64,000 nt of DNA, taken from the NCBI GenBank assembly GCA_001004885.1, contig LCRX01000009.1:1459-65458 (forward strand), in the 5' to 3' direction. A program made the position numbers and the translations under genes. Positions within the stretch are counted from its first letter, which is position 1, and every line of letters starts with the position of its first letter. The DNA comes from Candidatus Magasanikbacteria bacterium GW2011_GWA2_56_11. GTDB taxonomy: Bacteria; Patescibacteriota; Patescibacteriia; Magasanikbacterales; UBA922. Positions 36,852-58,640 of the stretch are shown here, one piece after another. A model generated the notes under the pieces. It was given only the letters and a program-made list of their open reading frames with translations. It was not told the DNA's origin and searched no databases.

Positions 36852-37679
36852 ATGTACGTCAAAAAACCCCATGAAATCGAACTTATCATCGAGGGCGGGC
36901 GCCTGATGGGCGATGTTCTCGATCGACTTTCCGGGATGATCAAACCCGGCGTGTCGGCGTGGGAAATTGATCAAGCGGCCGAGGCCATGATCCGGGCGGC
37001 GGGCGGCGCGCCGGCGTTCAAAGGCTACCGCGGTCGGAAGAGCGACCCGCCGTTCCCTTCCACATTGTGTTTTTCTGTCAACGAAGAACTGGTGCATGGG
37101 ATAGCGACGAAAGAAAAAATAGTCAAAGACGGGGACCTAGTGAGCCTGGATATCGGCATGGAATATCCGGCGGGCCAAAACTCCAAGGCAAAAAATCAAA
37201 AATCCGGACGCGGGTATTTTACTGATACGGCGCTGACTGTGGCGGTGGGCAAAGTCCCGGAAAAGATCCAAAAACTGTTGCGGGTTACCGAGCAGGCGCT
37301 CGAGGCGGGAATAGAGGCGTCCCGGCCGGGCCGGACAGTGGCCGATATCGGCCGGGCGATTGAACAGTATGTCTACCAGCAGGGACGCTACGGCATCGTG
37401 CGCGATCTGGTCGGACACGGCGTCGGGCACGCGGTCCACGAAGAGCCCAGGGTACCCAATTACTACGACGAAGATCTGGAAACCTGGATTTTGCGACCGG
37501 GTGTCGTGATCGCCATCGAACCCATGATTAGCCTGGGCTCTTACCAGGTAAAGGTGGCGCGCGACGGCTGGACAATTTCGACCGCGGATCAGAGTCTCAA
37601 CGCGCATTTTGAACATACCATTGTCATTACCGAAGACGGTCCGCTGGTCGCGACGCGGCGGCCGTCCGAACGGCCGTAA
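36852..37679 (+). CDS. map: methionine aminopeptidase type I with an internal insertion
   Basis: FSVNEELVHGI...DIGMEY...LVGHGVGHAVHEEP...IAIEPM...HFEHTIVIT. Confidence 0.9.
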   Translation: MYVKKPHEIELIIEGGRLMGDVLDRLSGMIKPGVSAWEIDQAAEAMIRAAGGAPAFKGYRGRKSDPPFPSTLCFSVNEELVHGIATKEKIVKDGDLVSLDIGMEYPAGQNSKAKNQKSGRGYFTDTALTVAVGKVPEKIQKLLRVTEQALEAGIEASRPGRTVADIGRAIEQYVYQQGRYGIVRDLVGHGVGHAVHEEPRVPNYYDEDLETWILRPGVVIAIEPMISLGSYQVKVARDGWTISTADQSLNAHFEHTIVITEDGPLVATRRPSERP

Positions 37680-37746: not shown

Positions 37747-39354
37747 ATGCCGACTCGTGTATTTTTTTTAGCGGTTTTTTTGGCCGCGTCCGCGGCGTTT
37801 TTTCCGCTAAGCGTCCGGGGCGAGGATACGGCCGGCGGCCAATCCGGCGCGGCGAGCTGCTTGTCCGAGGCGCAGTATTGGTACAATGCCGCCGTCGGCG
37901 GCTGCTTGACGAAAGTCGCCGCTGATATTGGCAACGCCTACGCGAGCACGTCGATCGGCGAATACACCACCCCAGAACAGGCGGCCCTGGTGGCCGAAGA
38001 ACTGCAACAGCAGCACAGGCAGCTGTTTGCCGACATTCAAGAACGCCAGGCAGCTTGCTATTCCGGAGATATTGCCGAGACTTACCAAAAGAAAACTGCC
38101 GAATGCTACGCCAAAAATACCTTTGGGCCGGTATGGGACCGGATACCAGTTCTAAAAGGCGCGCTCGTGAACACTTTTCAGGATTACGATAAGTTGTCCC
38201 CGGCCCAAGCCCAGGAGCTGGGGATTTGCATCGAGCAGTGGTCGCAAATTTATGATGTTAAGCTGGTTTCCGGCGAGTCGGAGCGCGCTTTGAGCCGGTG
38301 TTTTACGGCTGCCGGCCTATCCGGCCTGGCCGGGGTTTATGAAAAGGCAGCCATTGTTATCGACTGCGCCCAGGAACAGTCGCCGTTCAAAAGCCCGGAC
38401 GACGTCGCCCGGCTGTTTCAGGCGCAAACACCGGCGGAGGCCGCGTATATTGAACAGTGTGTTATCAAGCGCACCGCACCGGTCGTGGCCGGTATCGCTG
38501 TTTTGAATCTGCCTTGGGCCGCCGGCTGGCATAATGTATTTCTACTCGGCCAGCTGATAGTTACCCAGCCGTTCTTTCTTATCCGGCGGCGCAAGTACAA
38601 GACCTGGGGCAAGGTATTCGACGCGGTTACTACCAGTCCGGTGGACCTGGGCAGCGTCAGGCTGGTCAACGACGAAACCAAGAAAGTCGTCTCGACCCTG
38701 GTTACCGGGCGGGACGGCGCTTACTTCTTTTTGCCTCCGCCCGGCACTTACCGGGTGGAGGTGGACAAGCCCGGCTACCGGTTTCCGTCGGCGCTGCTTT
38801 CCCGGCAGGCCAAGGAGGCTGGCCAGTATTTTGGCGAGCCGATCCCGATTGCGCGCCGGGAGGACGTGATTGACCGGCATATTCCGGTGGATCCGCACGT
38901 GGCGCGCGTATCGGCGGCGCATTTTATCTGGCGCAAGTGGAAGTACCGGGCGGCGCTCGCTGTCGGGCTCGCGGCGCCTTTGCTGTCGCTCTTTGCCCTG
39001 GCGTTTTCGCGGGCCTGGTGGGTGGTGACGCTTTTCTTTGTCCACCTGGTGTTGTTGGTTTTCTTTCTGCGCCTGTCCCGGCGGGACAGGGCGCGCAAGT
39101 TTGGCGTGGTTACCGGGCCGGGCCAGGGTCCTTTGGGGGGAGTAGTGGTCTCTCTGTTCCGGAAAGAGGACAATAAACTTTTGCACTATTGCGTTACGGA
39201 TATGTTTGGACGGTATTATTTTCCGCGCGTAGAGGGTAACTTTGCCCTCACCTTTAAGAAATCGGGGTACGCGGAAAAACAGATACCGCTGTCGGTAAAA
39301 GACAGCGACAGCCGGACGTCGCTCAAAGCGGACGTGAGTCTGGAGAAGGGATAG
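37747..39354 (+). CDS. secreted/membrane hypothetical protein with two carboxypeptidase-regulatory-like (prealbumin-fold) segments
   Basis: Signal peptide; VTGRDGAYFFLPPPGTYRVEVDKPGY and VTDMFGRYYFPRVEGNFALTFKKSGY. Confidence 0.65.
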   Translation: MPTRVFFLAVFLAASAAFFPLSVRGEDTAGGQSGAASCLSEAQYWYNAAVGGCLTKVAADIGNAYASTSIGEYTTPEQAALVAEELQQQHRQLFADIQERQAACYSGDIAETYQKKTAECYAKNTFGPVWDRIPVLKGALVNTFQDYDKLSPAQAQELGICIEQWSQIYDVKLVSGESERALSRCFTAAGLSGLAGVYEKAAIVIDCAQEQSPFKSPDDVARLFQAQTPAEAAYIEQCVIKRTAPVVAGIAVLNLPWAAGWHNVFLLGQLIVTQPFFLIRRRKYKTWGKVFDAVTTSPVDLGSVRLVNDETKKVVSTLVTGRDGAYFFLPPPGTYRVEVDKPGYRFPSALLSRQAKEAGQYFGEPIPIARREDVIDRHIPVDPHVARVSAAHFIWRKWKYRAALAVGLAAPLLSLFALAFSRAWWVVTLFFVHLVLLVFFLRLSRRDRARKFGVVTGPGQGPLGGVVVSLFRKEDNKLLHYCVTDMFGRYYFPRVEGNFALTFKKSGYAEKQIPLSVKDSDSRTSLKADVSLEKG

Positions 39355-43429: not shown

Positions 43430-46400
43430 ATGGCGCCATTCCTTTTGCCGTATTTGCGACGCATAAAGGAAATCCTGCCGGGTAGGCTCCGCCAGTACCG
43501 CTGGTTGGCGTTTTTTGTTGCTGCCGTCGGCATTGGCATGCTGGTTTGGGCGGGGCCGGCGGCGGCTCTCGACGGAACCGATGTTTTGAACGCCTTTATC
43601 AAGGCTATCGCCTGGCTCATGCTGGTTATCGCCCAGATTTGCATCGGGCTTACCATTTTTTTCCTGCGGTTTTTCATTTCCATCGCGAGCTACAACAACT
43701 ATATAGACGTGGACGTGGTCCAGCTGGGTTGGATAATGGTACGCGACGTGGCCAACATGTTTTTTGTCGTGGCGCTCTTGGTAATTGCCTTTGGCACCAT
43801 CTTGGGCCTCGAGGAATACGAGTGGAAAAAGAATCTGGTGAAACTGGTTTTGGCCGCCATTTTCATCAACTTCAGCAATCTTATCGCCCAGCTTATCATA
43901 GACGTGGCGCACGTTTTTACGATTACGTTCCTGAACGCGGTTTCGGCCACGGCCGGCGGCAATTTGATCAACATGTTCAAGCTGCAAAATATCCTGTCCA
44001 TCACCGGTACCGCAAACTCAGCCGACGACGATATTTTGCTCGCCACGCTGACCGGCGCCATTACGGCCGTGATTTTTTCCGTCATGGCCGCCATTGCCAT
44101 GGGTTCGTATGTTTTTGTCATGGCGTCCCGCGTCGTGGTCCTTTGGGCGCTTATCATCCTCTCGCCCCTGGCTTATCTTTTGGGCGTTTTGCCCAAAACC
44201 AAATCATACGCCGATCGCTGGTGGAGCGAGTTCGGCAAGCACGTGATCGTCGCGCCGGTGATGGTGTTCTTTCTTTGGCTGTCCTTCGCCACCCTGGGGA
44301 CCGGAGATATTATCACCGATATTGAAGCAAACGTCCCCAAATCGCAGCAGCTCGAGCAGATGGAGAATAGCGGCAAAGCTACCCAGATTTCGCTTTCCGA
44401 CGTTACTACCTGGGAAAACATGGCCAACTTCATCCTGGCTTTGGCCTTTATGATCGTCGGCCTCAAGGTTACCCAGGAAACCGGGGCCTACGGCAGCGGC
44501 GCGGTGAGCAAGGCCGTGGATTTCGGCAGAAAAGTGGCTACTATCGCGACCGGCTACGCGGCCGGCCGGTGGCTCGTGGGCAAGGGCCAGGATGTGGCGG
44601 CTTTTGCCGGCAAGGGTATTGCCAAGGGCGCCTATATCGCCACTCTCGAAAATCCGGTGGAGCGCTTCAAGATGGGTTTCATGCGCAACGTGGTCGAAGG
44701 TTATCGCGAGTGGCGCGCGCGCGGTCCGCTGATCGCCAAACGGGAACGCGAGGCCGAGTTGGCAGAGGGCCAAGACCTGACGGTGGCCGAGAAAGCCGCC
44801 GGCATGAAAGTGGTTGAGAACCGGGCCGACGCCACGGGCAAAATTTTCAAGTCCGAGCTGGCCGAGGGCGAGCAGTTGACCGACGCCGAGAAGGCGGCCG
44901 GCATGCGGGTGGCGGAAAGAGCCAAACGTTTCAAGGGTAACAGCCGGGGTGAGATCCTCAAAGAAAACTACTTCGAGTTCGAAAAGAACGATCCGCGCAA
45001 CGCCTTGGTCCGTTTCGTTCACGGACGATTGCACAGCCGCCACGAGAAGCTGATCAAGTCGAAAAAACTTTTGGAAAAAGTTACGAAAGAGAAGGGTTAT
45101 AATGAAGAACTCATGGATAAGCGGGTAACCGCCAGCCCCAAGCACCTTTTTCAGAGTTTTGAAGGCATAGAAGGCGTGCACCGCTTCGACGCCCTTGACC
45201 GTATCGAACAGGGTATGGTCGAGGCCGAGAAAATGCGGTCGGCCGCCAAAACAGAGGAGTTCTCGGCTTACGGCAAGGCTTTGATTTTGGAAAACCCGCG
45301 TTTTAAAGACGGCGAGTGGAAGGTACCGGGTACGAGGGGCGCCAAAGGCAGCATGATCGAGCAAATCGTCGAGCACAAGGAAAAGGCGGCCCTCGCGGAG
45401 CAGCGCATCCAGCAGCTGACAAGTGGCACCAAGGAAAAGTACCTGAAAGGCTCCAAGGGCCAGATGACGCTCCAGGGCCGGATAAAGGCCGAACTCGAGA
45501 CCAAGGCGCACGACGCCGAAGCGCAAAATCTGCAGGCCGCGGCCCAATTCCAGGTGGCCAACACCGATGTGCGCGAAATGGAGCGCCGCCGGAAAGAGCT
45601 GGACGACAAGGTGGCGCGCGGCGAGATGTCGCCAGAGCAGGCGGAAAAGGAAAGAAAAAAGCTGCGCGACGTTATCGCCCGGACCGTGGCCTCCGAAAAG
45701 CAGGCGCACACCTCGGAGATGGAGACCGAGGAATTGACCAAGGGGAAAGAGCGGGAGTATTACGGGACCAGGCATGGCGAAGAAGAACTGGCCAAGGAAG
45801 CCGAACTCAAGCGCAAGATCGCCTTGTCCGAGGCAGCGGTTAAATCGAAAGAAACCAAGGCGGAGGAAGAGTTCGCCGAAGATAAGGGCAGAAAAATAAT
45901 CCAGGAAACGAAGGCTCTGGAGGCCGAGACCACCGGCCAGGAGGCGGCCGCCAAGCGGGTCGAAGCCGAGGAACGGCGGAAGTTTTTGGCCACTGAACCG
46001 GGCCGCGATGTAGCCAGGAAAATCCAGGCCGAAGAGCTCAAAACCGGGGCCGAAGAAGAGGTCGTCAAACAGATTGAGGCCGAAGAAAAGAAGAAATTTG
46101 CCGATAGCATGCCCGGGCAGCAGGTCATCGAACAGACCAAGGCGGCTGAACTGGCCCGCGAGGTGGTTGAGGCGGAAATCAAAAAGATTGAAGCGCAGAA
46201 GCGCCGCGAGGTGCGCGAGCCGAGCCGCCAGAAACTAGATGATTTGTACCGCGAATTGGAAGAGATTGACGGGCGGACTGGTTTGACCGGCATCGACAGG
46301 GAGCTAGAGGCCAAAAACAGAGATATCGCGGCCAAAGAAGAGGAAAAGCAAAGAAGATTGGAAGAAATCAACGAGTACGTTTTGGGGTCCAAGAACAAGA

Positions 46401-49216
46401 CAGAGAAAAAACAGCGGACCCAAGAAGCCAAGGCGCAAAAAGCTGCCCTTGACAAGGAAATGTCCGATCTGTACGACAGCCGGGATGAAATTGTCGGCCG
46501 CCGCCAGGCCGTCAAGAGAAGCGCCGAGGCGCAGAAGGACGAGGCCTGGAAAAGTTTCCAGGACCGTTTGGAGCCGGGAGACCTTTTGGCCCGCAAGGTG
46601 GCCGCGGAAAAACAGGCCCATACCGAAGAGCTCAAGGTGGAGCAGATCGAAAAGGCTATGGAGCGCTCTTATTTTAGCGGCACCCATGGGCAGCACGAAC
46701 TCGAAGAAGAAGTGGCGCTCAAGGCCAGGGTAGAGGCCGATTCGGCCGAGGTCGAAGAAAAGGAAGCCAAGGCCAAACGGGATTACTTTTATGCCGGTCG
46801 CCATCCGGAGGCCAAGGTGCTTTTGTTCCGCAAAGAGCAGGCTACTCTGGGTAAACAGGCGGAAGAAGGGGAAACTGAACTGATGGAGCTGGAGCAGCGC
46901 CGCTTGGCCATGACCGCCGGCGCCGGCGCCGGCGGGCGGTTTACCCGTATCCAGGACGCGGCGGTGCGCAAAGAAGCCGAACAGGCGGAGATAACCAGGA
47001 CGGAAAAAGAGGGATTGCGCCAGGCGTACGACAGGGGCGCGGAGCAGGTTACCCGCGCCAACCTGGCCGAGCAGGCGGCCAAAGCGGCGGAGGAATTTAT
47101 CAAGCAAATAAAGAGCGCCGACCTGGAGAAGCAGTTTGTCGAGGCGGGCAAAAAACTGAACGAACTGTTGAAAAAAAGCAAAAATGACCTGAAGACACTG
47201 ATAGACGAGGTGAAAAAAGGCCGCCACGACGGCATCGTATCCGCGCTCGGCGCCGCCCAGGTTATCGGGGTGCAGGAGAAGAATACAGAACTGGCGCGCA
47301 AGCGCGCGGACGACGCGGCGCATGACGCTTTTGTATACAAGCCTAATTACGGCACTACTTCTCCCTCTTCCGCTTTTGCCGACTATGCCAAAAAGCAGCT
47401 CGAATCCTTCCGCAGCATGGAGCGCGCCAAGGCTATGAAGCAGGCGACGGACATTATGGCCCATTTAACGGAGATCAAGCGTAGCAAAAAGCCGCTGACA
47501 GTTGACCAGGAGGCCGAGCTGGCGGCCTCGACCACGTTCCTGACCGAAGAGGCCTGGGTAGACGATCAGGGAGAATACATATTTAAGATGCTGGGCAAGC
47601 TGCAAAAAGGCGAGATTGACGACGAAGACGAACGGCGGAGCTGGCAACATATGGCCGAAATGTTTGCTGAAATGGGCTGGATAAAGGGGGCGGACGGGAA
47701 AAGCGACCAAGTTTTTGAAGCTGACGGTTCGCTTAAGCGGGATGCCGTGTTGCTTAATAAGTACGACCGTAAGATGGCCGGCGATTTGCAGAATCTGGCC
47801 CTGACCGGGCTGGACACCGAGTTGTCACAAGCGCACAATGCGATTGCCGCAGAGTACGATAAAAATAACGGCAAGGTACAACAAGCGGCCAGCGCAGCGC
47901 AAGATGCGGAAATCACCAAGCTTAAAACGGATGGCAAATATAGGCCTCTTTTGGATGAGGCCGAAACAAATGCGAGAGCGTCAGTGCGGCAGTATTATGA
48001 CGCCAGACTTGTCGCCGTTAAAGAGCAAGCCAGGCAGCAGGAAGAAAAAAAACTTAAAGGCGGGCCCAAGCTAGACGATGCCGCTAAACAGCAACGACTA
48101 GAAGCGGCCGTTGCCGCCGCCGAGACGCAGTTTAGAGTAGAACATGCGGGAGAAATGGAAGAGCAGATTGAATTTCAGATTAAAGTTGAACAAGATAAAG
48201 CGCTGGGGGAAAATAGCGAAGCGAAAGCGGCAATCAAAAAGGCTGTGGAGGATGCCGTTACGCCGCTTAAAAAATCATACTGGGAGGTGGCGGCAGATGT
48301 ATTGTCCACAGGGAAAGGCGGTTCCATTAGTACTGTCGAGCAGCTCAAGGACAGATTTGACCGGCACGGCGATATGCTGCAGTTCGCCACCCGGACCTTC
48401 AAAAAGAACGCTTTGGACACCGGCCACGAAGAGCTGGGTATGAACCAGGATTTTGATGAGGATGAGGACGTTTACCGTTTTCGTACGGCTGGCGAAGGCA
48501 GGGCATTGTTGAGGGCTGACCGTGTTAAGATTGATCGGAGCAAGCTTATAGCCTCTGACCAATTTCACACCAACGGCGTTTTGAACTTTCGCCATGGCAT
48601 AATTGACGATTTCGCAGAGAGCGCTCTATCCCTTACCTTTGGCAAGATAACCAAGGCCATGGAATTCACCAGAATGCCGGAAAGATCTCTTAAAGGCGGC
48701 TATTATATTCATAAAAATGAGGATGCTGCCGTGGAACGCACGCTTGATAAAACTACAGGTAAAATGGTTTCTTATGCTATTTTGGGCAGCGAATCGGCCC
48801 GGGCGAAGTTTGCAGACGATGGCGACGTTACCGCGGAGCAGCAGCGCAACCATATGATGGCGCGCGGCGTGCTTACTCATTTGATGGCTGCGGGTAGCGG
48901 CAGGGGTTTTGCTTTGGGCGCCCACAGACTGTTCCAGCACATCAGCGAGCAGCAAGCGCAGCAGGGGATTGTCAATACAAAAATAGGCGATATGCCGTTT
49001 AGAACGGCCAAGGAGGTGGCTAGGTACATTCGGACGGCTCTGGAGGGTAAGAATGCCGGTTTTATGCATGCCTTCACCCAATCAACGTATGCTGACCAGG
49101 AAGATCGCGTTTTAGCCATGATGAGACAGATCGAGAACGAAAGGCCAAAAGCAGATTTCGGAAATCAGTCGGAGGCCGAAGAGTACGATCAAATGCAGCA
49201 AACTCTGGCAGCCTAA
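43430..49216 (+). CDS. giant 1928-aa protein with a polytopic membrane N-terminus (VirB6/TrbL-like, about 8 TM) and a coiled-coil extension of about 1500 aa containing internal repeats
   Basis: Single uninterrupted ORF; hydrophobic helices in the first ~350 aa; the remainder is E/K/A/R-rich with repeated modules (for example VASEKQAHT...YYGTRHG and VAAEKQAHT...YFSGTHG). Confidence 0.75.
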   Translation: MAPFLLPYLRRIKEILPGRLRQYRWLAFFVAAVGIGMLVWAGPAAALDGTDVLNAFIKAIAWLMLVIAQICIGLTIFFLRFFISIASYNNYIDVDVVQLGWIMVRDVANMFFVVALLVIAFGTILGLEEYEWKKNLVKLVLAAIFINFSNLIAQLIIDVAHVFTITFLNAVSATAGGNLINMFKLQNILSITGTANSADDDILLATLTGAITAVIFSVMAAIAMGSYVFVMASRVVVLWALIILSPLAYLLGVLPKTKSYADRWWSEFGKHVIVAPVMVFFLWLSFATLGTGDIITDIEANVPKSQQLEQMENSGKATQISLSDVTTWENMANFILALAFMIVGLKVTQETGAYGSGAVSKAVDFGRKVATIATGYAAGRWLVGKGQDVAAFAGKGIAKGAYIATLENPVERFKMGFMRNVVEGYREWRARGPLIAKREREAELAEGQDLTVAEKAAGMKVVENRADATGKIFKSELAEGEQLTDAEKAAGMRVAERAKRFKGNSRGEILKENYFEFEKNDPRNALVRFVHGRLHSRHEKLIKSKKLLEKVTKEKGYNEELMDKRVTASPKHLFQSFEGIEGVHRFDALDRIEQGMVEAEKMRSAAKTEEFSAYGKALILENPRFKDGEWKVPGTRGAKGSMIEQIVEHKEKAALAEQRIQQLTSGTKEKYLKGSKGQMTLQGRIKAELETKAHDAEAQNLQAAAQFQVANTDVREMERRRKELDDKVARGEMSPEQAEKERKKLRDVIARTVASEKQAHTSEMETEELTKGKEREYYGTRHGEEELAKEAELKRKIALSEAAVKSKETKAEEEFAEDKGRKIIQETKALEAETTGQEAAAKRVEAEERRKFLATEPGRDVARKIQAEELKTGAEEEVVKQIEAEEKKKFADSMPGQQVIEQTKAAELAREVVEAEIKKIEAQKRREVREPSRQKLDDLYRELEEIDGRTGLTGIDRELEAKNRDIAAKEEEKQRRLEEINEYVLGSKNKTEKKQRTQEAKAQKAALDKEMSDLYDSRDEIVGRRQAVKRSAEAQKDEAWKSFQDRLEPGDLLARKVAAEKQAHTEELKVEQIEKAMERSYFSGTHGQHELEEEVALKARVEADSAEVEEKEAKAKRDYFYAGRHPEAKVLLFRKEQATLGKQAEEGETELMELEQRRLAMTAGAGAGGRFTRIQDAAVRKEAEQAEITRTEKEGLRQAYDRGAEQVTRANLAEQAAKAAEEFIKQIKSADLEKQFVEAGKKLNELLKKSKNDLKTLIDEVKKGRHDGIVSALGAAQVIGVQEKNTELARKRADDAAHDAFVYKPNYGTTSPSSAFADYAKKQLESFRSMERAKAMKQATDIMAHLTEIKRSKKPLTVDQEAELAASTTFLTEEAWVDDQGEYIFKMLGKLQKGEIDDEDERRSWQHMAEMFAEMGWIKGADGKSDQVFEADGSLKRDAVLLNKYDRKMAGDLQNLALTGLDTELSQAHNAIAAEYDKNNGKVQQAASAAQDAEITKLKTDGKYRPLLDEAETNARASVRQYYDARLVAVKEQARQQEEKKLKGGPKLDDAAKQQRLEAAVAAAETQFRVEHAGEMEEQIEFQIKVEQDKALGENSEAKAAIKKAVEDAVTPLKKSYWEVAADVLSTGKGGSISTVEQLKDRFDRHGDMLQFATRTFKKNALDTGHEELGMNQDFDEDEDVYRFRTAGEGRALLRADRVKIDRSKLIASDQFHTNGVLNFRHGIIDDFAESALSLTFGKITKAMEFTRMPERSLKGGYYIHKNEDAAVERTLDKTTGKMVSYAILGSESARAKFADDGDVTAEQQRNHMMARGVLTHLMAAGSGRGFALGAHRLFQHISEQQAQQGIVNTKIGDMPFRTAKEVARYIRTALEGKNAGFMHAFTQSTYADQEDRVLAMMRQIENERPKADFGNQSEAEEYDQMQQTLAA

Positions 49217-49228
49217 ACATATGACCGT

Positions 49229-50605
49229 ATGCACCACCTAGAAACCAAGCAATTTCTTCCGCGCTATTTCGTCGCCGACTGGCCGGTTACAGCTTCTTCT
49301 GTCCGGAAGCTGGCCGAGGCCGGCCGCCGGATAAGCGTGGACAATCCGAAGCTGGATACCGTCTGGCAGTATGCCCGGCAAATTACCGATTTTCTGGCGA
49401 CCGCGGCCGACGATCCGGAGAATTTTGTGTTGGAGCCGTGGGAGCGGCAGGTTATTTCCCTGGTGGAGACTCAGCCCTTGGAAGAGGCTGTGAGCGAGTT
49501 GGCGATGTTGGAGCAGTCAATAGCGAAAGCGAATAGACGAGGCGGGGCAGAGTTGTCGTCGGGCGGCCTGGCAGAAGCGGTTACTTTGAGTGCCGAGAAT
49601 CTGGATTTTCTTAAGCTGGGCGACGATGTGCGCGCCGAGTGGCAACCCTTTGTCCAGCATATCTATTCCCTGGAAGAGTTCCAGGCCAAGACTGCCGCCT
49701 GGGAAGACCTAAATGTCGCCCGGCTGGCGCGCAGCGCGGTAGAGCTGTCGGCAGCCGAGCACAAAAAAGACGCGGCTCAGGCCATTTTATCTTTGTGCCT
49801 CTCCTTGCCGGTCAACGACGCCACGCAGTATACCTGGGAGGAGGCGTTTCTTTTAACTGTCTTCATTCAGGTTGTTTACAGGGCTCTGCCCCAGCTGTCC
49901 GAAGACGACAGGATAAGCGCGGTTAAAAATTTTTTTTACCGCGCCATTATGCTGGGAGTGCCGGTGCGGCAAATTTGCGCGGAATTGGTTTATGATACCG
50001 ACACGCCGATAAGCTACGCGCTCGAACATCGCTCTCTCAGCCAGGCGCTCGCGGACAACGTGGAAAAAGTCGTCCTGTCTTTGGACGGGCCGGTGAGCCG
50101 GCCCTGGAGCGATACGCTGAGTGAATACCGGTCCCGCGCGCGCGGCGGGCAGGACGAGACAAATTCCGCGCGGGAGTACGCGCTTGACCTGTATCCGGAA
50201 GGTGCGGCCGAGCCTAGGCTAAGAGAATGGTACGCCGAAATGCTCGATATTTTTGTCCACCTGGAAAAAGCCGACCTGGTGCCGCATAACCGCGGCGGCG
50301 AACTCGCCCCGGATGAAGCGTATCACAACGACCTGGTCCAGCTTATCGCCTGGTTCGGCGTCGGCGAGGCCGCCCGGAAAGATCTGGTCGGGTATTTTCA
50401 GACCGCCGGCGCGCGCGTGCCGCTCGCGGCTTTCCACAAAAGTCTGGAGGCGGCGGCCGATCTAAGCCAGGATACTACCGTGGAAAACGCGCTGGCTTGG
50501 GCCGATGCCCTGCGGTCGGCCGGGCTGTTGGGTCCGGACGAGGAAATTTTGGAGTTTCACGAGAATGACGGCCGGTTCCATTGGCGCCGGCAGCTGACAG
50601 CCTAA
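49229..50605 (+). CDS. hypothetical acidic protein, paralogue of the next gene
   Basis: Shared segments with the 50610 protein (FFYRAIMLGVPVRQ versus YFYQALASGVPVRYW). Confidence 0.6.
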   Translation: MHHLETKQFLPRYFVADWPVTASSVRKLAEAGRRISVDNPKLDTVWQYARQITDFLATAADDPENFVLEPWERQVISLVETQPLEEAVSELAMLEQSIAKANRRGGAELSSGGLAEAVTLSAENLDFLKLGDDVRAEWQPFVQHIYSLEEFQAKTAAWEDLNVARLARSAVELSAAEHKKDAAQAILSLCLSLPVNDATQYTWEEAFLLTVFIQVVYRALPQLSEDDRISAVKNFFYRAIMLGVPVRQICAELVYDTDTPISYALEHRSLSQALADNVEKVVLSLDGPVSRPWSDTLSEYRSRARGGQDETNSAREYALDLYPEGAAEPRLREWYAEMLDIFVHLEKADLVPHNRGGELAPDEAYHNDLVQLIAWFGVGEAARKDLVGYFQTAGARVPLAAFHKSLEAAADLSQDTTVENALAWADALRSAGLLGPDEEILEFHENDGRFHWRRQLTA

Positions 50606-50609
50606 ATAT

Positions 50610-51590
50610 ATGCCCGCACTCGGTACCCGTACTTTTTATGAATTTCGTCTGCAGATCCCGGCCGACCTTTCCGGCGTGCTTGAGGTAGTAACGCGCGAAT
50701 TGGCGGCCAGCGCACCGGGGAACGGCGCGCCAGAGCTCGCCAAACTGTACCAGTATTTGGAGCCTCTGTACCGGTTGGCAAGCAATCCCTCGCCCCGTCT
50801 GCCGGAAGGGGTCATTGACCAGGCGACAGTCTCCCTGCTCGATGCGGATCTGGCCGACATGGCCTTGGATCCCGATCTTGATCCGGAGCTGGTCATCGCT
50901 CTGTCGGTGGAGATATCATTGGTGGCGGCCGCTACCGGCAATATGAAAGGTATCACGCCGTACACGTTCGAAGAATTTAAGGCCGTGCTTGCCGGCACCG
51001 ACGCAATTTACCACGATATTATTTTTGTCCACACGCTGCGGAGTCTTATCGGCGGACCGGGCAATCAGGAATACGCCGCGCATATTCTCAAAGCCCTGCC
51101 CGGCAAAACCAGCCGGGAGGATAACTATGCCGGCTATTTCTGGGATTCGGCTTTGGTATTCTCCCTGCTGCTCCAGGCCGCCTGGAGGTTTTTTCCGAGC
51201 CTGCCTTCGGTATCCCAGCAATACTTGCTGCAAAATTATTTTTATCAGGCGCTCGCGTCCGGCGTGCCGGTTCGGTACTGGCTTGGGGCCGCTCTCGACC
51301 GCGGGCCGGTGGGTGGCAGCCGCACGCTCAGCAATTTTTTCGTGCAGGCCGTAACCGGCAGCCGCGAAGAAGTGGTGCTCAACCCCATAGCCGGCGAAGG
51401 ACGTAATTTGACCGAGTTTGTCCGGGGGTATTTTCGCGGGCTAACCGCCAATGAACTGCCGGCCATAGCCCAGGAAAAATACCTCAACTCTTTTTATGCC
51501 GATCCAGAGCTTAGAGAAGCGTTCGGACCGTGGGCCAGAGAACTCTTGACCATAATGGTGCTCCTGAAGGATGGCGCGATAAAGATTTAG
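50610..51590 (+). CDS. hypothetical protein, paralogue of the 49229 gene
   Basis: See above; starts 5 nt after the previous stop. Confidence 0.6.
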   Translation: MPALGTRTFYEFRLQIPADLSGVLEVVTRELAASAPGNGAPELAKLYQYLEPLYRLASNPSPRLPEGVIDQATVSLLDADLADMALDPDLDPELVIALSVEISLVAAATGNMKGITPYTFEEFKAVLAGTDAIYHDIIFVHTLRSLIGGPGNQEYAAHILKALPGKTSREDNYAGYFWDSALVFSLLLQAAWRFFPSLPSVSQQYLLQNYFYQALASGVPVRYWLGAALDRGPVGGSRTLSNFFVQAVTGSREEVVLNPIAGEGRNLTEFVRGYFRGLTANELPAIAQEKYLNSFYADPELREAFGPWARELLTIMVLLKDGAIKI

Positions 51591-51604: not shown

Positions 51605-52699
51605 ATGTCTGCCACCCCTACTATACTGGTAAAAAAAGCCGATGGCAGCACCGTCCGGATGACGCTCGCTGAGGCCAAAAAGCTCAGCCAGCCAAAAAAT
51701 CCACCCTCGTCTCTGCCGGCGGCTGCAGCGCCCTCCGCGTCGGAGGACGCCGGACCGGACCGGCTTTTGCCTTTGGCCACACCGGCAGCGGCCAGCCAGC
51801 CGGCGCCTAGCCGGGATAAGCCTCTTTTGGAGCACGAGATCCAAGATCACGAGGTGCCCCATCGGGATATTACCGGCGCGCCCGACTACGAGGCCGCGGT
51901 CGCGCGAATTGTGGCTGTGTCCGGAGCGGTCGTGCCTGCCGAGTTGCGGACCAGAGCGCGGTCGCTTATCGTGTCGGCCCTCAAGGGTATTCGCGATCAG
52001 GAACAATTCCAGGCGTACGCGCGGCAGGCGCCAAATGACGGCGGTTTGGGCTGGACCCCGGAGACTATCCGGGCTGTCTGGTCGCGTATCGAAGGCGAGC
52101 GGGCCAACGCGTCCCGGCTTCCGCTGCCGGCCGTAACCCAGAGTCTCTCTACCACTACCCCGGTGAAAGCTATTTTTCTTGACGAAGCGCGGGCCCAGGC
52201 CTCGGCAGCGTCTTTTTCCCGGCCGCCGCAGCCGGCGGGAGAGAATCCTCGGCCGGAGTTTGTCCGGCCGGCGCCGGCAGGTGGCCTGCCCATTCCGCCC
52301 CCGGCGGCCAGGCCGGGCATGGCCCTGTCCCGTCCGGTACTCCATGACGTGGCGCCGGCCAGAGAAGCCAGGAATTCTCCGGTGACCGGGCCGATAGAGG
52401 AGATACAGACTTTCTCGCTCAAGGACTGGCGCCGTTTGGGAGCCACGCCACGCGCGGCGCGCGAGGCTCTTTTTGCCAAATTTAGCGGCTGGAAAGAAGA
52501 ATCATTGCTCCTGTTTTTGGACATACGCTCGGCCTGGCGCGAGAGTCCGCTGGTGCGCGAGTACCGGTCTCTCGCGGCCGAGGCGGTGAACTCCGGCCGG
52601 ACGATGCGGGAGGCGGCCGGCTCTCAGCCGGCCAAAGACAGGCTGACTGACGCGGATATTATGGAGATCGTTGAACTCAATAGCAGTTTAAGGGTATAA
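51605..52699 (+). CDS. hypothetical Pro/Ala-rich protein
   Basis: 364 aa ORF in the same operon-like array. Confidence 0.55.
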   Translation: MSATPTILVKKADGSTVRMTLAEAKKLSQPKNPPSSLPAAAAPSASEDAGPDRLLPLATPAAASQPAPSRDKPLLEHEIQDHEVPHRDITGAPDYEAAVARIVAVSGAVVPAELRTRARSLIVSALKGIRDQEQFQAYARQAPNDGGLGWTPETIRAVWSRIEGERANASRLPLPAVTQSLSTTTPVKAIFLDEARAQASAASFSRPPQPAGENPRPEFVRPAPAGGLPIPPPAARPGMALSRPVLHDVAPAREARNSPVTGPIEEIQTFSLKDWRRLGATPRAAREALFAKFSGWKEESLLLFLDIRSAWRESPLVREYRSLAAEAVNSGRTMREAAGSQPAKDRLTDADIMEIVELNSSLRV

Positions 52700-52901: not shown

Positions 52902-53336
52902 ATGCAGCAGTTCGTAGTGCCGCAATTTATCGAAGTGGAGGACAAAATTTTCGGGCCGATCACGACCCGGCAATTTTTAATATTACTCGTGGGCGGGATA
53001 CTGGTTTTTTTGGCCTACCGGTACGCCGATCTGGCGCTGTTTATTTTTACCTTGGCTTTCATCGGCGGGGCCTCGCTGGTTCTGGCGTTCGTGAAGGTGA
53101 ACGGCCAGACATTCCATTACTTTATGCTCAATATCGCGCAGACTTTGCGCAAGCCGTCCCTGCGCGTGTGGCATAAAAGCTTTACCAAGGAGCAGCTCCA
53201 ACACTGGCGCCAAAGCGATCTGGCGCCGGAATCCGCGTCCGCGGCCGCCGCTGTGCCGGTCCGGCGGGAGAGAATCCGCGATCTGGCGCTCCTCGTGAAC
53301 ACCGGGGGATTTTACCGTCCCGACGACAGCGTTTAA
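52902..53336 (+). CDS. PrgI-like (VirB3-analogue) small membrane protein
   Basis: FIEVEDKIFGPITTRQFLILLVGGILVFLAY resembles the PrgI-family signature; two TM segments. Confidence 0.6.
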   Translation: MQQFVVPQFIEVEDKIFGPITTRQFLILLVGGILVFLAYRYADLALFIFTLAFIGGASLVLAFVKVNGQTFHYFMLNIAQTLRKPSLRVWHKSFTKEQLQHWRQSDLAPESASAAAAVPVRRERIRDLALLVNTGGFYRPDDSV

Positions 53337-53355: not shown

Positions 53356-54048
53356 ATGCCGGACGACAAACTCAAAAAAAAGCCAAAACCCAAGCACCCC
53401 GCTACTCAGGCGCACCTGCCGGTGGCCGAAATCAAGGACGGCGTGGTGGTGCTCCGGGACGGCACCATGCGCGCGGTGCTGTTGGTGTCGAGCATCAATT
53501 TTTCTCTCAAGTCCGAAGACGAACAAAACGCGATCATTTCCTCTTATGTCGGCTTTCTGAATTCTCTCGATTTTCCGATTCAAATCGTCGTGCAGTCCCG
53601 CCGCTTGCAGATACGCCCCTACCTGGACCGGCTGATAAAAATGGAAAGGGAACAGGTGAACGAGCTTTTGCGGATCCAGACCGCGGATTATCGTTCGTTT
53701 GTCGAAGAGCTGGTGCAGATCGGGCAGATAATGACCAAGCGGTATTACGTTATCGTGCCTTATGATCCCCTGAGCAACAAGCGCAAAAGTTTTTGGTCCC
53801 GGTTCAAGGAAGTGGTCAAACCGGCGCTTAGCGTGCGGCTGAAAGAAGAAAGGTTCAAACAGCGCCAAGAAGATATCGCCTTGCGCGTGCGCCATATCGT
53901 GAGCGGTCTGTCGAGCATCGGGCTTTCGGCGGTTGAGCTCGACACGCAGGCATTGATAGAATTGTTTTATTCCACCTATAATCCGGATACCGCGTTCGCG
54001 GAGACGCTCAGCAACGTGGAAGATATCCGCCTGGAACAGGCCGCCTAA
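53356..54048 (+). CDS. VirB4-family conjugative ATPase, N-terminal segment, separated from the rest by a stop plus a frame change
   Basis: DGVVVLRDGTMRAVLLVSSINFSLKSEDEQNAIISSYVGFLNSL typical of Gram-positive-type VirB4 N-termini. Confidence 0.6.
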   Translation: MPDDKLKKKPKPKHPATQAHLPVAEIKDGVVVLRDGTMRAVLLVSSINFSLKSEDEQNAIISSYVGFLNSLDFPIQIVVQSRRLQIRPYLDRLIKMEREQVNELLRIQTADYRSFVEELVQIGQIMTKRYYVIVPYDPLSNKRKSFWSRFKEVVKPALSVRLKEERFKQRQEDIALRVRHIVSGLSSIGLSAVELDTQALIELFYSTYNPDTAFAETLSNVEDIRLEQAA

Positions 54049-54052
54049 TTTT

Positions 54053-55918
54053 ATGCCCTTCAAGCCCATAGCTACCAAATCCGGCTCCGGCCTGTCTCCG
54101 GGCAAAAACGCCGACGAGAAAATAAAACTCCAGGAGGAACTTATCACCCTGGAGGAGGAGAGGCTGTACCGCGAAGGCACGGTCGCCATCCGCGATTTGA
54201 TCGCTCCCGCCGCGTTCCGCGTCGAGTCAAGTTTCATCCAGCTCGGGACCACTTATCTCCGGACGCTGTTTGTGGTTACTTATCCGCGTTACATTTCGGT
54301 GGGGTGGAGCGCGCCGATTCTAAACCTCAACTTGACGATGGATATCAGCATGTTTTTTTACCCGGTGAATTCGGCTATTATCCTAAAACAGCTCAAGAAA
54401 AAAGTCGGCGCCCTGGAGGCCCAGCTGTCGGCCGACGCGGAAAAGGGCGCGGCCCGCGATCCGTTGCGGGAGACGGCGTTGCGCGACATCGAGCAGCTGC
54501 GCGACGACCTGACCCAGGGAGTGGAACATTTTTTTCAGTTCGCGTTTTACGTTACCATCTACAGCCAGGATCAAAAAGACCTGGACAAGCTGACCGAAGA
54601 TATTGAGAATATTTTTGGCTCCCGGCTTATTTACAGCAAGAACGTCTTGTACCAGGCGGAGCAAGGTTTCACTTCCACCCTGCCTCTTTGCGTGGACGAG
54701 CTGGCGATTTGTTTCAACATGAACTCATCGCCCATCGCCGCCTCGTTCCCCTTCATCTCTTCCGAGCTGACGAGCGACGACGGGATACTGTACGGCATTA
54801 ATCGGCACAACAATAGCCTGGTTCTGTTTGACCGGTTTTCCCTGCAGAACGCCAATATGGTCGTTTTCGCCACCTCCGGCGCCGGCAAGTCTTACGCGGT
54901 CAAGCTGGAAGTGCTGCGCAGCCTGATGATGGGCACAGAGGTAATCATCATTGACCCCGAGATGGAGTACCTGCATCTTACCGAGGCCGTCGGGGGTACT
55001 TACATAAATATTTCTCTCTCTTCGGACAGCAAGGTAAACCCCTTCGATTTGCCCCGCCCGGTCGGCCAGCAGATCTCCACCGAGGACATCATCCGCAGCG
55101 CGGTGATTACGGCCAAAGGACTGCTGCGGATAATGTTCGGGACGATAACCGCGCAGGAGGACTCTATCTTGGATCGGGCGCTCCTCGAAACCTACGCCAA
55201 AAAGGACATTACGCCGGCGGCGGACTTGACCGCGGTCGAGCCGCCCATAATGCAGGATCTTTTGGATATCCTCGAAGGCATGCAAGGGGCGGAGCAGCTG
55301 GTTTTGAAACTGCGCAAATATACCGAAGGGACGTTCTCCGGCCTGTTCAATTCCCCGACCAATGTTAACGTGGTCAACCAGCTGGTGGTATTCAGCGTGC
55401 GCGACCTCGAGGACGAGCTCCGGCCGATGGCTATCTATTCCCTGGTTAACTATATCTGGAACATCGTCCGGTCCGAGCAGAAGAAGCGGATACTTATCAT
55501 TGACGAAGCCTGGTGGCTCATGGCGCACGAGGACAGCGCCAAATTCATTTACGCGCTGGTCAAACGCTGCCGCAAGTATTATCTCGGCGTGTCGACGATT
55601 ACCCAGGACGTAAACGACTTTTTGCGCTCGCCCTACGGGCAGGCGATCGTAACGAACTCCGCGCTCCAGCTCCTTTTGCGCCAGTCGCCGGCGGCGGTCG
55701 ACACGGTGCAGCGCGTTTTTATGCTGACCGAAGGAGAAAAGTATCTGCTTTTGGAAAGCGGCGTGGGCGAGGGCATATTTTTTGCCGGCAACAAACACGC
55801 GGCCATAAAGGTAGTCGCCTCCTACACCGAGGACCAGCTTATAACCTCCGACCCCAAGCAGCTTTTGGAAATTGAAAAGGCCAAACGGGAATTCGGGGGA
55901 CAGGCCGACCGATCCTGA
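54053..55918 (+). CDS. VirB4/TrbE/CagE-family T4SS ATPase, core and C-terminal part
   Basis: Walker A ATSGAGKSY, Walker B ILIIDEAWWL, and the YLRTLFVVTYPRY segment. Confidence 0.85.
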   Translation: MPFKPIATKSGSGLSPGKNADEKIKLQEELITLEEERLYREGTVAIRDLIAPAAFRVESSFIQLGTTYLRTLFVVTYPRYISVGWSAPILNLNLTMDISMFFYPVNSAIILKQLKKKVGALEAQLSADAEKGAARDPLRETALRDIEQLRDDLTQGVEHFFQFAFYVTIYSQDQKDLDKLTEDIENIFGSRLIYSKNVLYQAEQGFTSTLPLCVDELAICFNMNSSPIAASFPFISSELTSDDGILYGINRHNNSLVLFDRFSLQNANMVVFATSGAGKSYAVKLEVLRSLMMGTEVIIIDPEMEYLHLTEAVGGTYINISLSSDSKVNPFDLPRPVGQQISTEDIIRSAVITAKGLLRIMFGTITAQEDSILDRALLETYAKKDITPAADLTAVEPPIMQDLLDILEGMQGAEQLVLKLRKYTEGTFSGLFNSPTNVNVVNQLVVFSVRDLEDELRPMAIYSLVNYIWNIVRSEQKKRILIIDEAWWLMAHEDSAKFIYALVKRCRKYYLGVSTITQDVNDFLRSPYGQAIVTNSALQLLLRQSPAAVDTVQRVFMLTEGEKYLLLESGVGEGIFFAGNKHAAIKVVASYTEDQLITSDPKQLLEIEKAKREFGGQADRS

Positions 55919-55978: not shown

Positions 55979-56581
55979 ATGCTGACTTTGCGCCAAAGAA
56001 TTTTTGCCGCCGCCAGTATCGTGGTGGCCTTGTTACTGGCGGTTATCTTGTATATGATTTATTTCCGGCGTCCGTCGGCGCCCGCTAATGACCGGAGGCC
56101 ATCGGGTTCTCCGTCGGCCGCGCTGCCCCAGCCGTCGGCCGCTGCCACGCAGAGGTACAGTGGGACGCAGCCTTTGCCTTCCGGCGGGTCCCGATCCGGG
56201 GTAATTTCCGAAGACGTTTATTTGCGCCAGTTGGCGAAAATTTTTGTGGAGCGCTTCTGGAGTTTTTCCAACCAAAACGGCAATCGGCACATTGCCGATA
56301 GCTTGGAGCTGGCCACGCCGAGCATGCAGGCTTGGATGAAAAGCCGCGCGGACGACGGCGCCGGCCTGTACGAGGGGGTAACGACAGAAATTCTGCGGGC
56401 TGAGGTCGTTTCCAAAGAAGGGGACAAAGCGGTCGTCGAGATCGGCGCCCAGCAAGAAATCAGTCAAAGAACTTCTACCACGACACCGACCGAAACCACT
56501 GTCGAAACCCGAACCGGACGGGTGGAATTGGAGCGGGTGGACGGCGAGTGGAAAGTAGATGCCTTGTACTGGGATAAATAA
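55979..56581 (+). CDS. N-terminally membrane-anchored protein, possibly a VirB8-like T4SS component
   Basis: A single N-terminal TM helix followed by a soluble domain of about 130 aa; the assignment is based on position and topology only. Confidence 0.45.
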   Translation: MLTLRQRIFAAASIVVALLLAVILYMIYFRRPSAPANDRRPSGSPSAALPQPSAAATQRYSGTQPLPSGGSRSGVISEDVYLRQLAKIFVERFWSFSNQNGNRHIADSLELATPSMQAWMKSRADDGAGLYEGVTTEILRAEVVSKEGDKAVVEIGAQQEISQRTSTTTPTETTVETRTGRVELERVDGEWKVDALYWDK

Positions 56582-56793: not shown

Positions 56794-56845
56794 GTTGTAA
56801 TTGTACACAAAATTGGCGGCGGATTTTTTCAAATATTGGTCTGGT

Positions 56846-57562
56846 ATGACGATAAGGAGGGGGATCAGTCAGGCAGGCGTCTGGCTGGCCGAAGTTTTAT
56901 TTCCGCTCTTCTGCCTCAAGTGCGGGGCAGAAGGATCGATCCTGTGTTCCGTTTGCCGGGCGGCGCTCTCTCCCCCCGGCTTTTTTGCCTGCCCGCTCTG
57001 CCACCGGCCGCGGGCAGGGGGCAGAGCCTGCCGGCGCTGCCGGTCCGATTCGGCGCTTGACAGCCACTCGGCCCTGGCCGCGTACCGCGAGGACGATATC
57101 TGGGGACGGCTGATCCGGACCTGCAAGTATCAGTACGTGTCCCAGGCGGTTTTGGCTCTGGATCCGGCTATCGCCGCCTTTTGTCGGGCCAATCCATTTT
57201 TTTTCGGTTTCGGCCAGCCAGTCGTTATTCCGGTGCCATTACACCCCTGCCGGGAGGCCGAACGCGGTTTTAACCAGGCGAGCCTGGTAGCGCTGTCTCT
57301 GGCGGCGGCGCTCGGACTGCGCGTGGCGCCGCTTTTGGCCCGCCCAGCCTGGACGCGCCAACAAGCAAAACTCGGCCGCGGGGAGCGCGAACGCAATGTG
57401 CGGGGAGCTTTTTCGCTTGCCCGCGGCGTCTCGGAGGCGCCGCGGGCGGTTATTTTGGCCGATGATGTGTACACTACCGGCAGCACGATGCAGGAATGCG
57501 CCCGGGTCTTGAAAGCGGCCGGGGCCGGATGGGTAACCGGGTTTACCCTGGCCAGGGGATAG
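56846..57562 (+). CDS. comF: ComF-family phosphoribosyltransferase-domain competence protein
   Basis: N-terminal CxxC zinc finger; C-terminal PRTase motif VILADDVYTTGST. Confidence 0.75.
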   Translation: MTIRRGISQAGVWLAEVLFPLFCLKCGAEGSILCSVCRAALSPPGFFACPLCHRPRAGGRACRRCRSDSALDSHSALAAYREDDIWGRLIRTCKYQYVSQAVLALDPAIAAFCRANPFFFGFGQPVVIPVPLHPCREAERGFNQASLVALSLAAALGLRVAPLLARPAWTRQQAKLGRGERERNVRGAFSLARGVSEAPRAVILADDVYTTGSTMQECARVLKAAGAGWVTGFTLARG

Positions 57563-57893: not shown

Positions 57894-58640
57894 CTAACCG
57901 TAATCCACTTCGATGCTGGAAAATTTGCCCGCGCCGACGATGATGTGGTCAACGAGATGGATACCCACCATATTGCCCACGGCTACGAGCTGCCTGGTAA
58001 CGTCAATATCGGCCTGGCTGGGTTTGACGACGCCCGAAGGATGATTGTGGACCAGAATAACGGCCGCGGCGCCGTATTCAATCGCCGGTTTAAAGACTTC
58101 GCGCGGGTGGATGAGGTTGGCGTTGATGGTGCCGATAGAAATCACCTCGTCGTGAATCACGCGGTGGTGGGAGTTGAGGTAAATGCCGCGCAAATGCTCT
58201 TTGGGCAGGCGCGCCATCTCGGCCGCGTAGCGATAGACGTCTTTGGCCGTGCGCAACAGGGCCGGTCCGGTCGCTTTGCGCTCGTAAAAACGCCGGCCAA
58301 GTTCGCCCACGGCGACAATCTGGGCCGCTTTGACGAGCGGGATATCCAGGTCGCGGGCCAGGCTGGCGGCGTTTTTCTGGACCGACAGCGCCCGTTCGCC
58401 GTATTCTTTCACGACGCGAGAAGCCATGTTGAGGACGTCCTCTTTGACAGTGCCGGTGTTGATGATTACCGCCAGGAGCTCGTGCACCGAAAGATTTTCC
58501 GGGCCGTATTTGATAAGTTTCTCCCGGGGTTTGTCGTCGCCGGGCAGGTCCCTGATCTTAAGGACGTATGTTCGGCCCGGCTGGGGCCGCTCCTGCTCCA
58601 GCACAACCACGGCGGAGTCCCGCAGGGCGTAGGCTTGCAT
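57894..58640 (-). CDS. radC: RadC-family JAMM/MPN protein
   Basis: HhH N-terminus; HNHPSG...PSQADI JAMM motif. Confidence 0.85.
   Translation of the reverse strand: MQAYALRDSAVVVLEQERPQPGRTYVLKIRDLPGDDKPREKLIKYGPENLSVHELLAVIINTGTVKEDVLNMASRVVKEYGERALSVQKNAASLARDLDIPLVKAAQIVAVGELGRRFYERKATGPALLRTAKDVYRYAAEMARLPKEHLRGIYLNSHHRVIHDEVISIGTINANLIHPREVFKPAIEYGAAAVILVHNHPSGVVKPSQADIDVTRQLVAVGNMVGIHLVDHIIVGAGKFSSIEVDYG

Follow-up and report, generated by a model that had tools for sequence, protein, structure and literature searches.

The window analysed here is a stretch of 64,000 nucleotides from Candidatus Magasanikbacteria bacterium GW2011_GWA2_56_11 (contig LCRX01000009.1, positions 1,459 to 65,458 of the forward strand). 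It contains a giant gene for a protein of 1928 amino acids (aa), which very probably is an extended VirB6 subunit of a type IV secretion system (T4SS) with a modular, non-coiled-coil tail. An earlier note, made from the DNA letters alone, had described this protein as a VirB6-like membrane base that carries a 1500-aa coiled-coil fibre on the outside of the cell. Our analysis bears out the base, and shows that the tail is not a coiled-coil fibre but a modular tether followed by a folded head of about 600 aa. The gene and its parts are as follows.

43430..49216, + strand: extended VirB6-like T4SS subunit, whole gene; a single unbroken open reading frame (ORF) of 1928 aa
43430..43570, + strand: Sec-type signal peptide, aa 1–47; basic n-region, hydrophobic core and AxA motif (AAA before LDG)
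43571..44479, + strand: VirB6/TrbL-like core, aa 48–350; seven long, mostly hydrophobic helices
44480..44749, + strand: basic, G/A-rich juxtamembrane helices, aa 351–440; isoelectric point (pI) 10.4, net charge +9
44750..45529, + strand: tail module A, about aa 441–700 (profile aa ~400–700); in 29 of 62 orthologues; includes the LAEG..EKAAGM duplication
45530..47029, + strand: variable repeat spacer, aa 701–1200; helix-turn repeats, both EKQAHT modules, 41–50% charged residues per 100-aa block
47030..47809, + strand: tail module B, aa 1201–1460; helical; in 37 of 62 orthologues
48287..48829, + strand: tail module C, aa 1620–1800; alpha/beta; in 35 of 62 orthologues
48830..49213, + strand: tail module D, about aa 1801–1928 (profile aa 1780–1928); C-terminal alpha/beta part of the head; in 3 of 62 orthologues (loci L003, L009 and L071)

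A VirB6 base with a large extension

We scanned one genome per GTDB species and found 445 loci related to the giant gene. The best 80 of these, essentially all from Ca. Magasanikbacteria, served as the locus sample. From aa 26 to aa 348, a hydropathy scan detected about eight hydrophobic segments, in line with the roughly eight transmembrane (TM) helices that had been noted in the first ~350 aa. The first of these segments belongs to the signal peptide. The N-terminus carries a net charge of +6.1 (mean of 80 family members) and an AxA-like cleavage motif is present across orthologues, so that this segment is predicted to be cleaved off. The other segments appear as seven long helices in a model computed with AlphaFold2 (AF2), and the VirB6 fold is characterized by just such a bundle, with about seven helices that are long and mostly hydrophobic. 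Several core residues are invariant (N109, F112, N147-F148-S149, R234 and P246). The juxtamembrane region that follows contains the conserved motif FGKKVATIAxGYAAGRW, with AF2 helices predicted at aa 356–374 and 376–401.

The window protein itself matches the Pfam family TrbL (PF04610) with an E-value of 0.0056 and 16.9 bits, which is under the cut-off of 25.9 bits. TrbL is matched by 25 of the 80 orthologues at E <= 0.01 (best 1.6e-6), and some database relatives are annotated with PF19590 or PF04610. We assign the protein to VirB6 because of these TrbL matches, the adjacent genes for PrgI, TrsD-like and VirB4 proteins, the conserved synteny of this T4SS cluster and the published T4SS of Patescibacteria. 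An extended VirB6 has been defined by at least five hydrophobic helices together with at least one large hydrophilic central or C-proximal domain (PMC12857230); the giant protein combines seven hydrophobic helices with a hydrophilic C-terminal extension of 1580 aa.

The open reading frame is genuine

A long ORF of this kind could in principle be an artefact, produced by an assembly chimera or by read-through between a VirB6 gene and a gene for an unrelated charged protein. Many database homologues are recorded as "partial" and stop at contig edges, and the region shows strong purine skew along with long antisense shadow ORFs, observations that would fit such an origin. Against it stand the 65 complete homologous ORFs of the locus sample (945–2108 aa), which are colinear, derive from independent metagenome-assembled genomes (MAGs) of Patescibacteria and share the same architecture: the tail is charged in all 65, with 25–38% charged residues. 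The range of lengths also confirms the earlier expectation that tails of variable length would be found on the same N-terminal fold. The order of modules A, B and C is identical in 26–37 complete orthologues, and synteny is kept on both flanks.

Further evidence came from the C-terminal 728 aa of the giant protein. Word-indexed homologue searches with this region gave just one and four matches, and an exhaustive search was needed, which covered 1.84 billion representative proteins and returned 78 matches. These are nearly all long proteins that align near their own C-termini, and the shorter ones resemble fragments. Twenty-one representatives match at E <= 1e-30 and most of them are full-length proteins of about 1000–1900 aa. 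The same exhaustive search found no similarity to the tail outside this VirB6 family. For the membrane domain, we found 30 database relatives, which come from Patescibacteria wherever the source is named. A public protein library contains an identical 1928-aa protein (P0032). Because complete colinear homologues exist and the relatives of the C-terminal region include this identical protein, we conclude that the giant ORF is real. A chimera, which the earlier note had listed as grounds for giving up its reading, can be dismissed, and the probability that we are looking at any kind of artefact is negligible.

Two observations on the sequence records belong here. Inside the giant gene, between window positions 44204 and 47464, the minus strand contains ORFs of 523, 291 and 386 aa. 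AT skew is strong (0.20–0.34) across this interval, and these ORFs are shadows of a purine-rich E/K/A coding strand rather than genes. Furthermore, many third-party annotation MAG records titled "uncultured Gammaproteobacteria bacterium" hold a Magasanikbacteria-type locus (L004, L006, L008, L010, L012 and others) with a VirB6 core 54–60% identical and equal synteny; the organism label of these records looks wrong.

The tail is modular and not a coiled coil

The tail had been described as almost pure E/K/A/R sequence with a heptad-like pattern. In fact, these four residues make up 44% of the tail (49% of aa 401–1300 and 36% of aa 1301–1928). We tested for heptads by a simple score of hydrophobic residues at positions a and d in the best register, compared with locally shuffled sequence in 100-aa blocks (this is not the same as Marcoil or DeepCoil). 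In most blocks the score did not exceed that of shuffled sequence, and only aa 901–1100 reached about 2.5 standard deviations. The longest stretch of the tail free of proline and glycine spans 47 aa. Heptads sustained over long unbroken helices, by which a coiled-coil fibrous surface protein would be recognized, were thus not found in the tail, and both the heptad score and the spacing of helix breakers led us to reject a continuous coiled coil. With frequent helix breaks and a C-terminal region of ~600 aa that folds with beta-strands, the 1500-aa fibre has to be abandoned.

In contrast, both repeat pairs that had been pointed out are present. The LAEG..EKAAGM duplication occupies aa 444–463 and 477–496 with a spacing of 33 aa, and the two EKQAHT...Y(Y/F)..HG modules at aa 751–810 and 1055–1114 are 45% identical (E 1e-16 by self-similarity). 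The latter are members of a series of at least eight diverged units of ~31 aa, each consisting of a helix, an F/Y end and a G/P turn, which recur with a period of ~38 aa. We found no tandem repeat in the tail at the DNA level and therefore rejected a recent tandem-repeat expansion; the repeats in the spacer are old and diverged. Among orthologues the spacer is poorly conserved, and the distance between modules A and B in the relatives varies from 35 to 783 aa (median 303) as compared with ~500 aa in the giant protein. A hidden Markov model (HMM) of the repeat unit gave no match in the orthologues, several of which have internal repeats of their own. From these two observations we conclude that spacers expand independently in different lineages.

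By composition, the tail might also be taken for an unstructured polyampholyte, that is an "entropic" linker, or for a single-helix ER/K rod, in either case a mere spacer with no specific function. Residues 400–1300 are 37–50% charged, pairs of E with K or R at positions i and i+4 are about twofold enriched over aa 701–1000 (10–11 per 100 aa), and the spacer is poorly conserved in sequence and unconstrained in length. These properties, however, concern the ~500-aa spacer only. Even there, a charge density well under that of classical ER/K helices, 18–20% hydrophobic residues, the merely twofold pair enrichment and a G/P turn every ~38 aa led us to reject the classical ER/K single alpha-helix. 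Outside the spacer, conservation extends to modules A, B and C, which contain invariant polar residues, and AF2 folds the last ~600 aa with confidence. We consider it very unlikely that the tail is nothing but a spacer.

The conserved modules were delimited by iterated profile HMM searches among 62 complete orthologues. Module B contains three near-invariant residues (W1376, D1378 and D1379), and within it the predicted local distance difference test score (pLDDT) of the AF2 model climbs from ~70 to >90. Module C is modelled with beta-strands at pLDDT >90 and has the conserved pattern GHxELG..D..R..K..QxH..G..R, in which H1666, K1700, H1713 and R1752 are invariant or near-invariant. Module D is limited to the closest relatives, and the model is confident to about aa 1900. 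As a whole, the head model (aa 1201–1928) has a mean pLDDT of 88.9 and a predicted template modelling score of 0.82, and in it long helical hairpins precede an alpha/beta region. The head has no match in Pfam and no sequence match in the PDB, and judged by the 78 matches of the exhaustive search it is private to this VirB6 family. A motif scan found no Walker A, HExxH, LPXTG or CxxC motif. Modules B and C are missing from 25 shorter orthologues (948–1392 aa), which contain different tail modules. Hence, at least two tail types are carried on one conserved base.

The surrounding T4SS gene cluster

Downstream of the giant gene, we identified the following genes.

49229..51590, + strand: d1 (49229–50605, 458 aa) and d2 (50610–51590, 326 aa); acidic tandem paralogues
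51605..52699, + strand: d3; Pro/Ala-rich soluble protein of 364 aa; tblastn match in 60 of 80 loci
52902..53336, + strand: PrgI/VirB3-like membrane protein; PF12666, E 4.8e-9, 37 bits (cut-off 27)
53356..54048, + strand: TrsD-like protein; weak TraC_F_IV match; resembles the N-terminal part of VirB4 as a separate gene
54053..55918, + strand: VirB4-like ATPase of the CD1110 (monoderm) type; NCBIfam NF045971, E 1.3e-100, 338 bits (cut-off 325)
55979..56581, + strand: d5; bitopic protein with an N-terminal TM segment and a ~150-aa domain; in 35 of 80 loci

The order of the cluster is conserved in 56–60 of the 80 loci, with the genes for VirB4, PrgI and the TrsD-like protein within 5 kb downstream of the giant gene. 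The VirB4-like ATPase also matches the P-loop family TraG of Pfam and is present in 56 of the 80 loci; the TrsD-like gene is kept in 58 (61–76% identity). VirB4 function is split between an ORF of 230 aa and an ATPase of 621 aa, which lie in different frames with a gap of 4 nt. The split resembles a frameshift, but the arrangement is kept in 56–58 of the 80 loci and fits the separate TrsD gene of Patescibacteria (PMC12102498).

The products of d1 and d2 are related to each other (26% identity, E 1e-10). Neither of them has a signal peptide, TM or other hydrophobic segment, and neither they nor d3 match a family in Pfam or NCBIfam. The genes d1/d2 tend to be present downstream where the tail has modules B and C (19/32 versus 1/26; Fisher p = 5e-6, with phylogeny not controlled). 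The d5 protein has a strong N-terminal hydrophobic segment and no family match; it is a candidate for a further T4SS component, and a VirB8-like role would be speculation. Apart from PrgI, we found no small ORF with two TM segments of the VirB2/PrgF pilin type at window positions 36000–64000, and library scans of the window proteins revealed no relaxase near the cluster.

The giant gene is preceded by genes for RecO, AsnRS and an RsmB/F-like methyltransferase. Further upstream lie those for EF-G, TrmD, EF-Tu, ribosomal protein L2 and SecY (window 9707–31103) as well as MetAP (36852–37679), and about 12 kb separate this ribosomal-protein/SecY region from the T4SS cluster downstream. Because of these housekeeping genes, we conclude that the cluster is chromosomal and not part of a mobile element.

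How the protein may work and where its tail may lie

The explanation of its function that we prefer, if only by a modest degree of confidence, is an extended VirB6 with a cytoplasmic modular tail that acts as a docking platform. Removal of the Sec signal peptide would come first. The seven-helix core would then oligomerize at the membrane, possibly into a pentamer as in R388 (PMC9259494) and in models of pCF10 (bioRxiv 10.64898/2025.12.18.695078), and would act together with the PrgI/VirB3, TrsD and VirB4 proteins encoded just downstream. The last short hydrophobic helix (aa 328–350) and the strongly basic segment after it would form a stop-transfer anchor, so that the 1500-aa extension would stay in the cytoplasm. 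This extension could serve as a modular tether that leads from module A through the fast-evolving helix-turn spacer to the ~600-aa head (B–C–D), with the flexible spacer setting the reach of the head. At the channel entrance, the head may dock or recruit soluble partners; candidates for these are the d1/d2/d3 proteins, which lack a signal peptide, or else substrates or the ATPase module. This scaffold role is something that we infer.

As to the location itself, the balance tips slightly towards the cytoplasm. Averaged over 80 sequences, the loop at aa 288–334 carries a net charge of −2.9 and the 60 residues after the last hydrophobic helix one of +5.4; every 20 aa between aa 368 and 427 contribute a net +1.7 to +2.8. 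We favour the cytoplasm because an acidic loop followed by a strongly basic segment is the classical stop-transfer signature. If the signal peptide and the seven helices are all taken as spans, eight in total, the K+R bias sums to about +15 in favour of the cytoplasm, and models with the tail outside come out negative. We also counted three other observations for a cytoplasmic tail: the giant protein contains neither an LPXTG motif nor another cell-wall anchor, d1/d2, which lack a signal peptide, accompany modules B and C, and VirB6 C-termini are cytoplasmic in A. tumefaciens, Brucella and H. pylori according to studies cited in PMC7648143.

Nevertheless, a number of considerations weigh against this preference. 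In the cryo-EM structure of R388, VirB6 has only its helices alpha1–alpha2 embedded in the membrane, and its remaining hydrophobic helices build a stalk in the periplasm (PMC9259494). A count of hydrophobic helices may for this reason be misleading, and charge-based topology is unreliable for VirB6. In the giant protein, AF2 models aa 200–243 as one long helix, which would alter the parity of membrane crossings, and the internal loops do not cleanly obey the positive-inside rule. The repeats of Anaplasma VirB6-3/-4 are accessible to trypsin and surface exposed, and TraG of F and SXT functions in mating-pair formation and entry exclusion (both PMC7648143). Indeed, those hydrophilic domains of extended VirB6 proteins for which the literature we searched gives localization data are extracytoplasmic. 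Surface proteins typically show rapid change of spacer length, lineage-specific repeats and alternative tail types, of which this family has at least two. Moreover, five tails of 165 kDa each would be sterically awkward near the VirB4 assembly centre. The docking role in particular has to contend with the fact that the head has no recognizable fold, which makes any function assigned to it a guess.

These considerations lead to a different account, in which the protein has the same identity but five tails pass through the cell wall and S-layer with the spacer as a stalk. The helices beyond alpha1–alpha2 would leave the membrane after assembly as they do in R388, and the head would contact a host bacterium or a pilus. 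In addition to the R388, Anaplasma and TraG precedents and the single helix at aa 200–243, this account is consistent with DotA, a VirB6-like protein, as a structural neighbour, with an architecture of anchor, variable repeat stalk and conserved head, with repeats that expand independently in different lineages and with a conserved base that carries one or the other of two tail types. It would also suit the lifestyle of Patescibacteria, which are epibionts with a T4SS that is essential during co-culture (PMC12857230). It is less easily reconciled with the basic segment (net +9, pI 10.4) right after the last hydrophobic helix and the acidic loop before it, with the missing wall-anchoring motif, with the lack of coiled-coil periodicity that a rigid fibre would require, with co-varying d1/d2 proteins devoid of export signals, or with the cytoplasmic C-termini cited for canonical VirB6. 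We regard an external tail as possible, at somewhat less than an even chance. A further version, in which the tail is a host-facing surface appendage where five stalks of variable length present a head of unseen fold, and where the tail types (A–B–C–D versus the short type) and their matching d1/d2 partners set host specificity, strikes us as unlikely. The extracellular tail of the earlier note is accordingly doubtful: the charge bias from N-terminus to loop to juxtamembrane segment (+6.1/−2.9/+5.4, pI 10.4) favours the cytoplasmic placement that the note itself had named as fatal to its proposal, and the examples of R388 and Anaplasma keep this from being decisive.

As a separate observation, cysteine is nearly absent from the tails of this family, with 12 residues in 61,499 and none at all in 51 of 62 orthologue tails. 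Other proteins of the window contain 0.25–1.7% cysteine. We rejected cysteine exclusion as a test for export, since the exported proteins of the window contain 0.7–1.7% cysteine and several cytoplasmic neighbours contain none.

Comparison with known systems

Chromosomal T4SS related to MPF_FATA have been described for Patescibacteria by Quinonero-Coronel et al. 2025 (PMC12102498), and such systems were also reported by Wang et al. 2023, as reviewed in PMC12857230. The giant gene belongs to the T4SS described in the former study: the cluster has the same components (VirB6-like, PrgI/VirB3, a separate TrsD and a monoderm-type VirB4) in the same order, and it is likewise chromosomal, next to housekeeping genes, with no relaxase nearby and with relatives in Patescibacteria. 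Many Patescibacteria and Gram-positive systems are reported to encode VirB2/PrgF near virB4 or virB6; here, by contrast, we found no VirB2-like two-TM ORF between 36 and 64 kb of the window. The survey detected VirB6 by HMM, and its main text mentions neither the word "coiled" nor a long VirB6 tail.

Rickettsiales have extended VirB6 proteins as well (Anaplasma VirB6-3/-4, Rickettsia RvhB6), which also consist of a core and a very long, hydrophilic, repetitive C-terminal extension (PMC7648143, PMC2653234) that varies in length between strains or species. In Anaplasma, extreme cases have repetitive tails of 4,322 and 9,935 aa (PMC7648143). However, the Rickettsiales systems are of the diderm P-type with several tandem virB6 paralogues, whereas a single gene in a monoderm host is found here. 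Their repeats are near-identical tandem repeats of DNA, and those of the giant protein are diverged with no tandem repeat at the DNA level. Finally, the Rickettsiales tail is surface exposed by experiment. The present tail ends in a conserved head that is folded in the AF2 model.

TrwI/VirB6 of R388 (PDB 7o3v; PMC9259494) likewise has seven long, mostly hydrophobic helices. The two proteins share only 10% sequence identity, and TrwI is a protein of 342 aa without an extension, as compared with a signal peptide and 1580 further residues in the giant protein. Tn916 Orf15-type VirB6 proteins of the MPF_FA class (700–900 aa; PMC12857230) and TraG of F/SXT resemble it in joining a polytopic base to hydrophilic domains. 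The extensions in the present family are longer (up to ~1700 aa) and have conserved modules of their own with no match in Pfam or the PDB, and we detected no homology between the tail and the extensions of MPF_FA VirB6 or TraG.

The earlier statement that no family of such fusions is described does not hold, because "extended VirB6" is a named subfamily (PMC12857230, PMC7648143) and VirB6 genes beside virB4 in Patescibacteria have been published (PMC12102498). What we did not find in the literature searched is a description of the tail family with modules A–D, a variable spacer, a head of novel fold and a link to d1/d2. Southlakia epibionticum depends on the Patescibacteria T4SS, and no other T4SS is known to be essential to the bacterium that carries it; the substrate and direction of transport of this T4SS are not known, and what the extra domains of extended VirB6 proteins do is likewise described as unknown (all PMC12857230). 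This VirB6 family supplies a well-sampled natural set of variants, in which a conserved base is combined with a spacer of 35–783 aa and with tails of at least two types. Experimental handles are also offered by the ~600-aa head, which is modelled with confidence, contains invariant polar residues and has no known relatives, and by d1, d2 and d3 as candidate partners. If internal, the tail would provide a T4SS channel subunit with a cytoplasmic recruitment platform of a kind not described so far; if external, it would be a candidate host-contact device of epibionts from the Candidate Phyla Radiation (CPR), and should the host-facing version be true, the first candidate for a host-recognition component of a CPR T4SS.

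Genes flanking the cluster

Directly after the T4SS cluster follow genes for a ComF-like protein (56801–57562, + strand), which has a double zinc ribbon, a phosphoribosyltransferase motif and 12 cysteines and is syntenic in 27 of the 80 loci, and for a RadC/JAB protein (57894–58640, − strand). The region is flanked by two possible envelope proteins. One is a secreted protein of 535 aa (37747–39354) with CarboxypepD_reg-like beta-sandwich domains and nine cysteines, and the other is a membrane-anchored VanW/PG_binding_4 protein of 672 aa (60682–62700).

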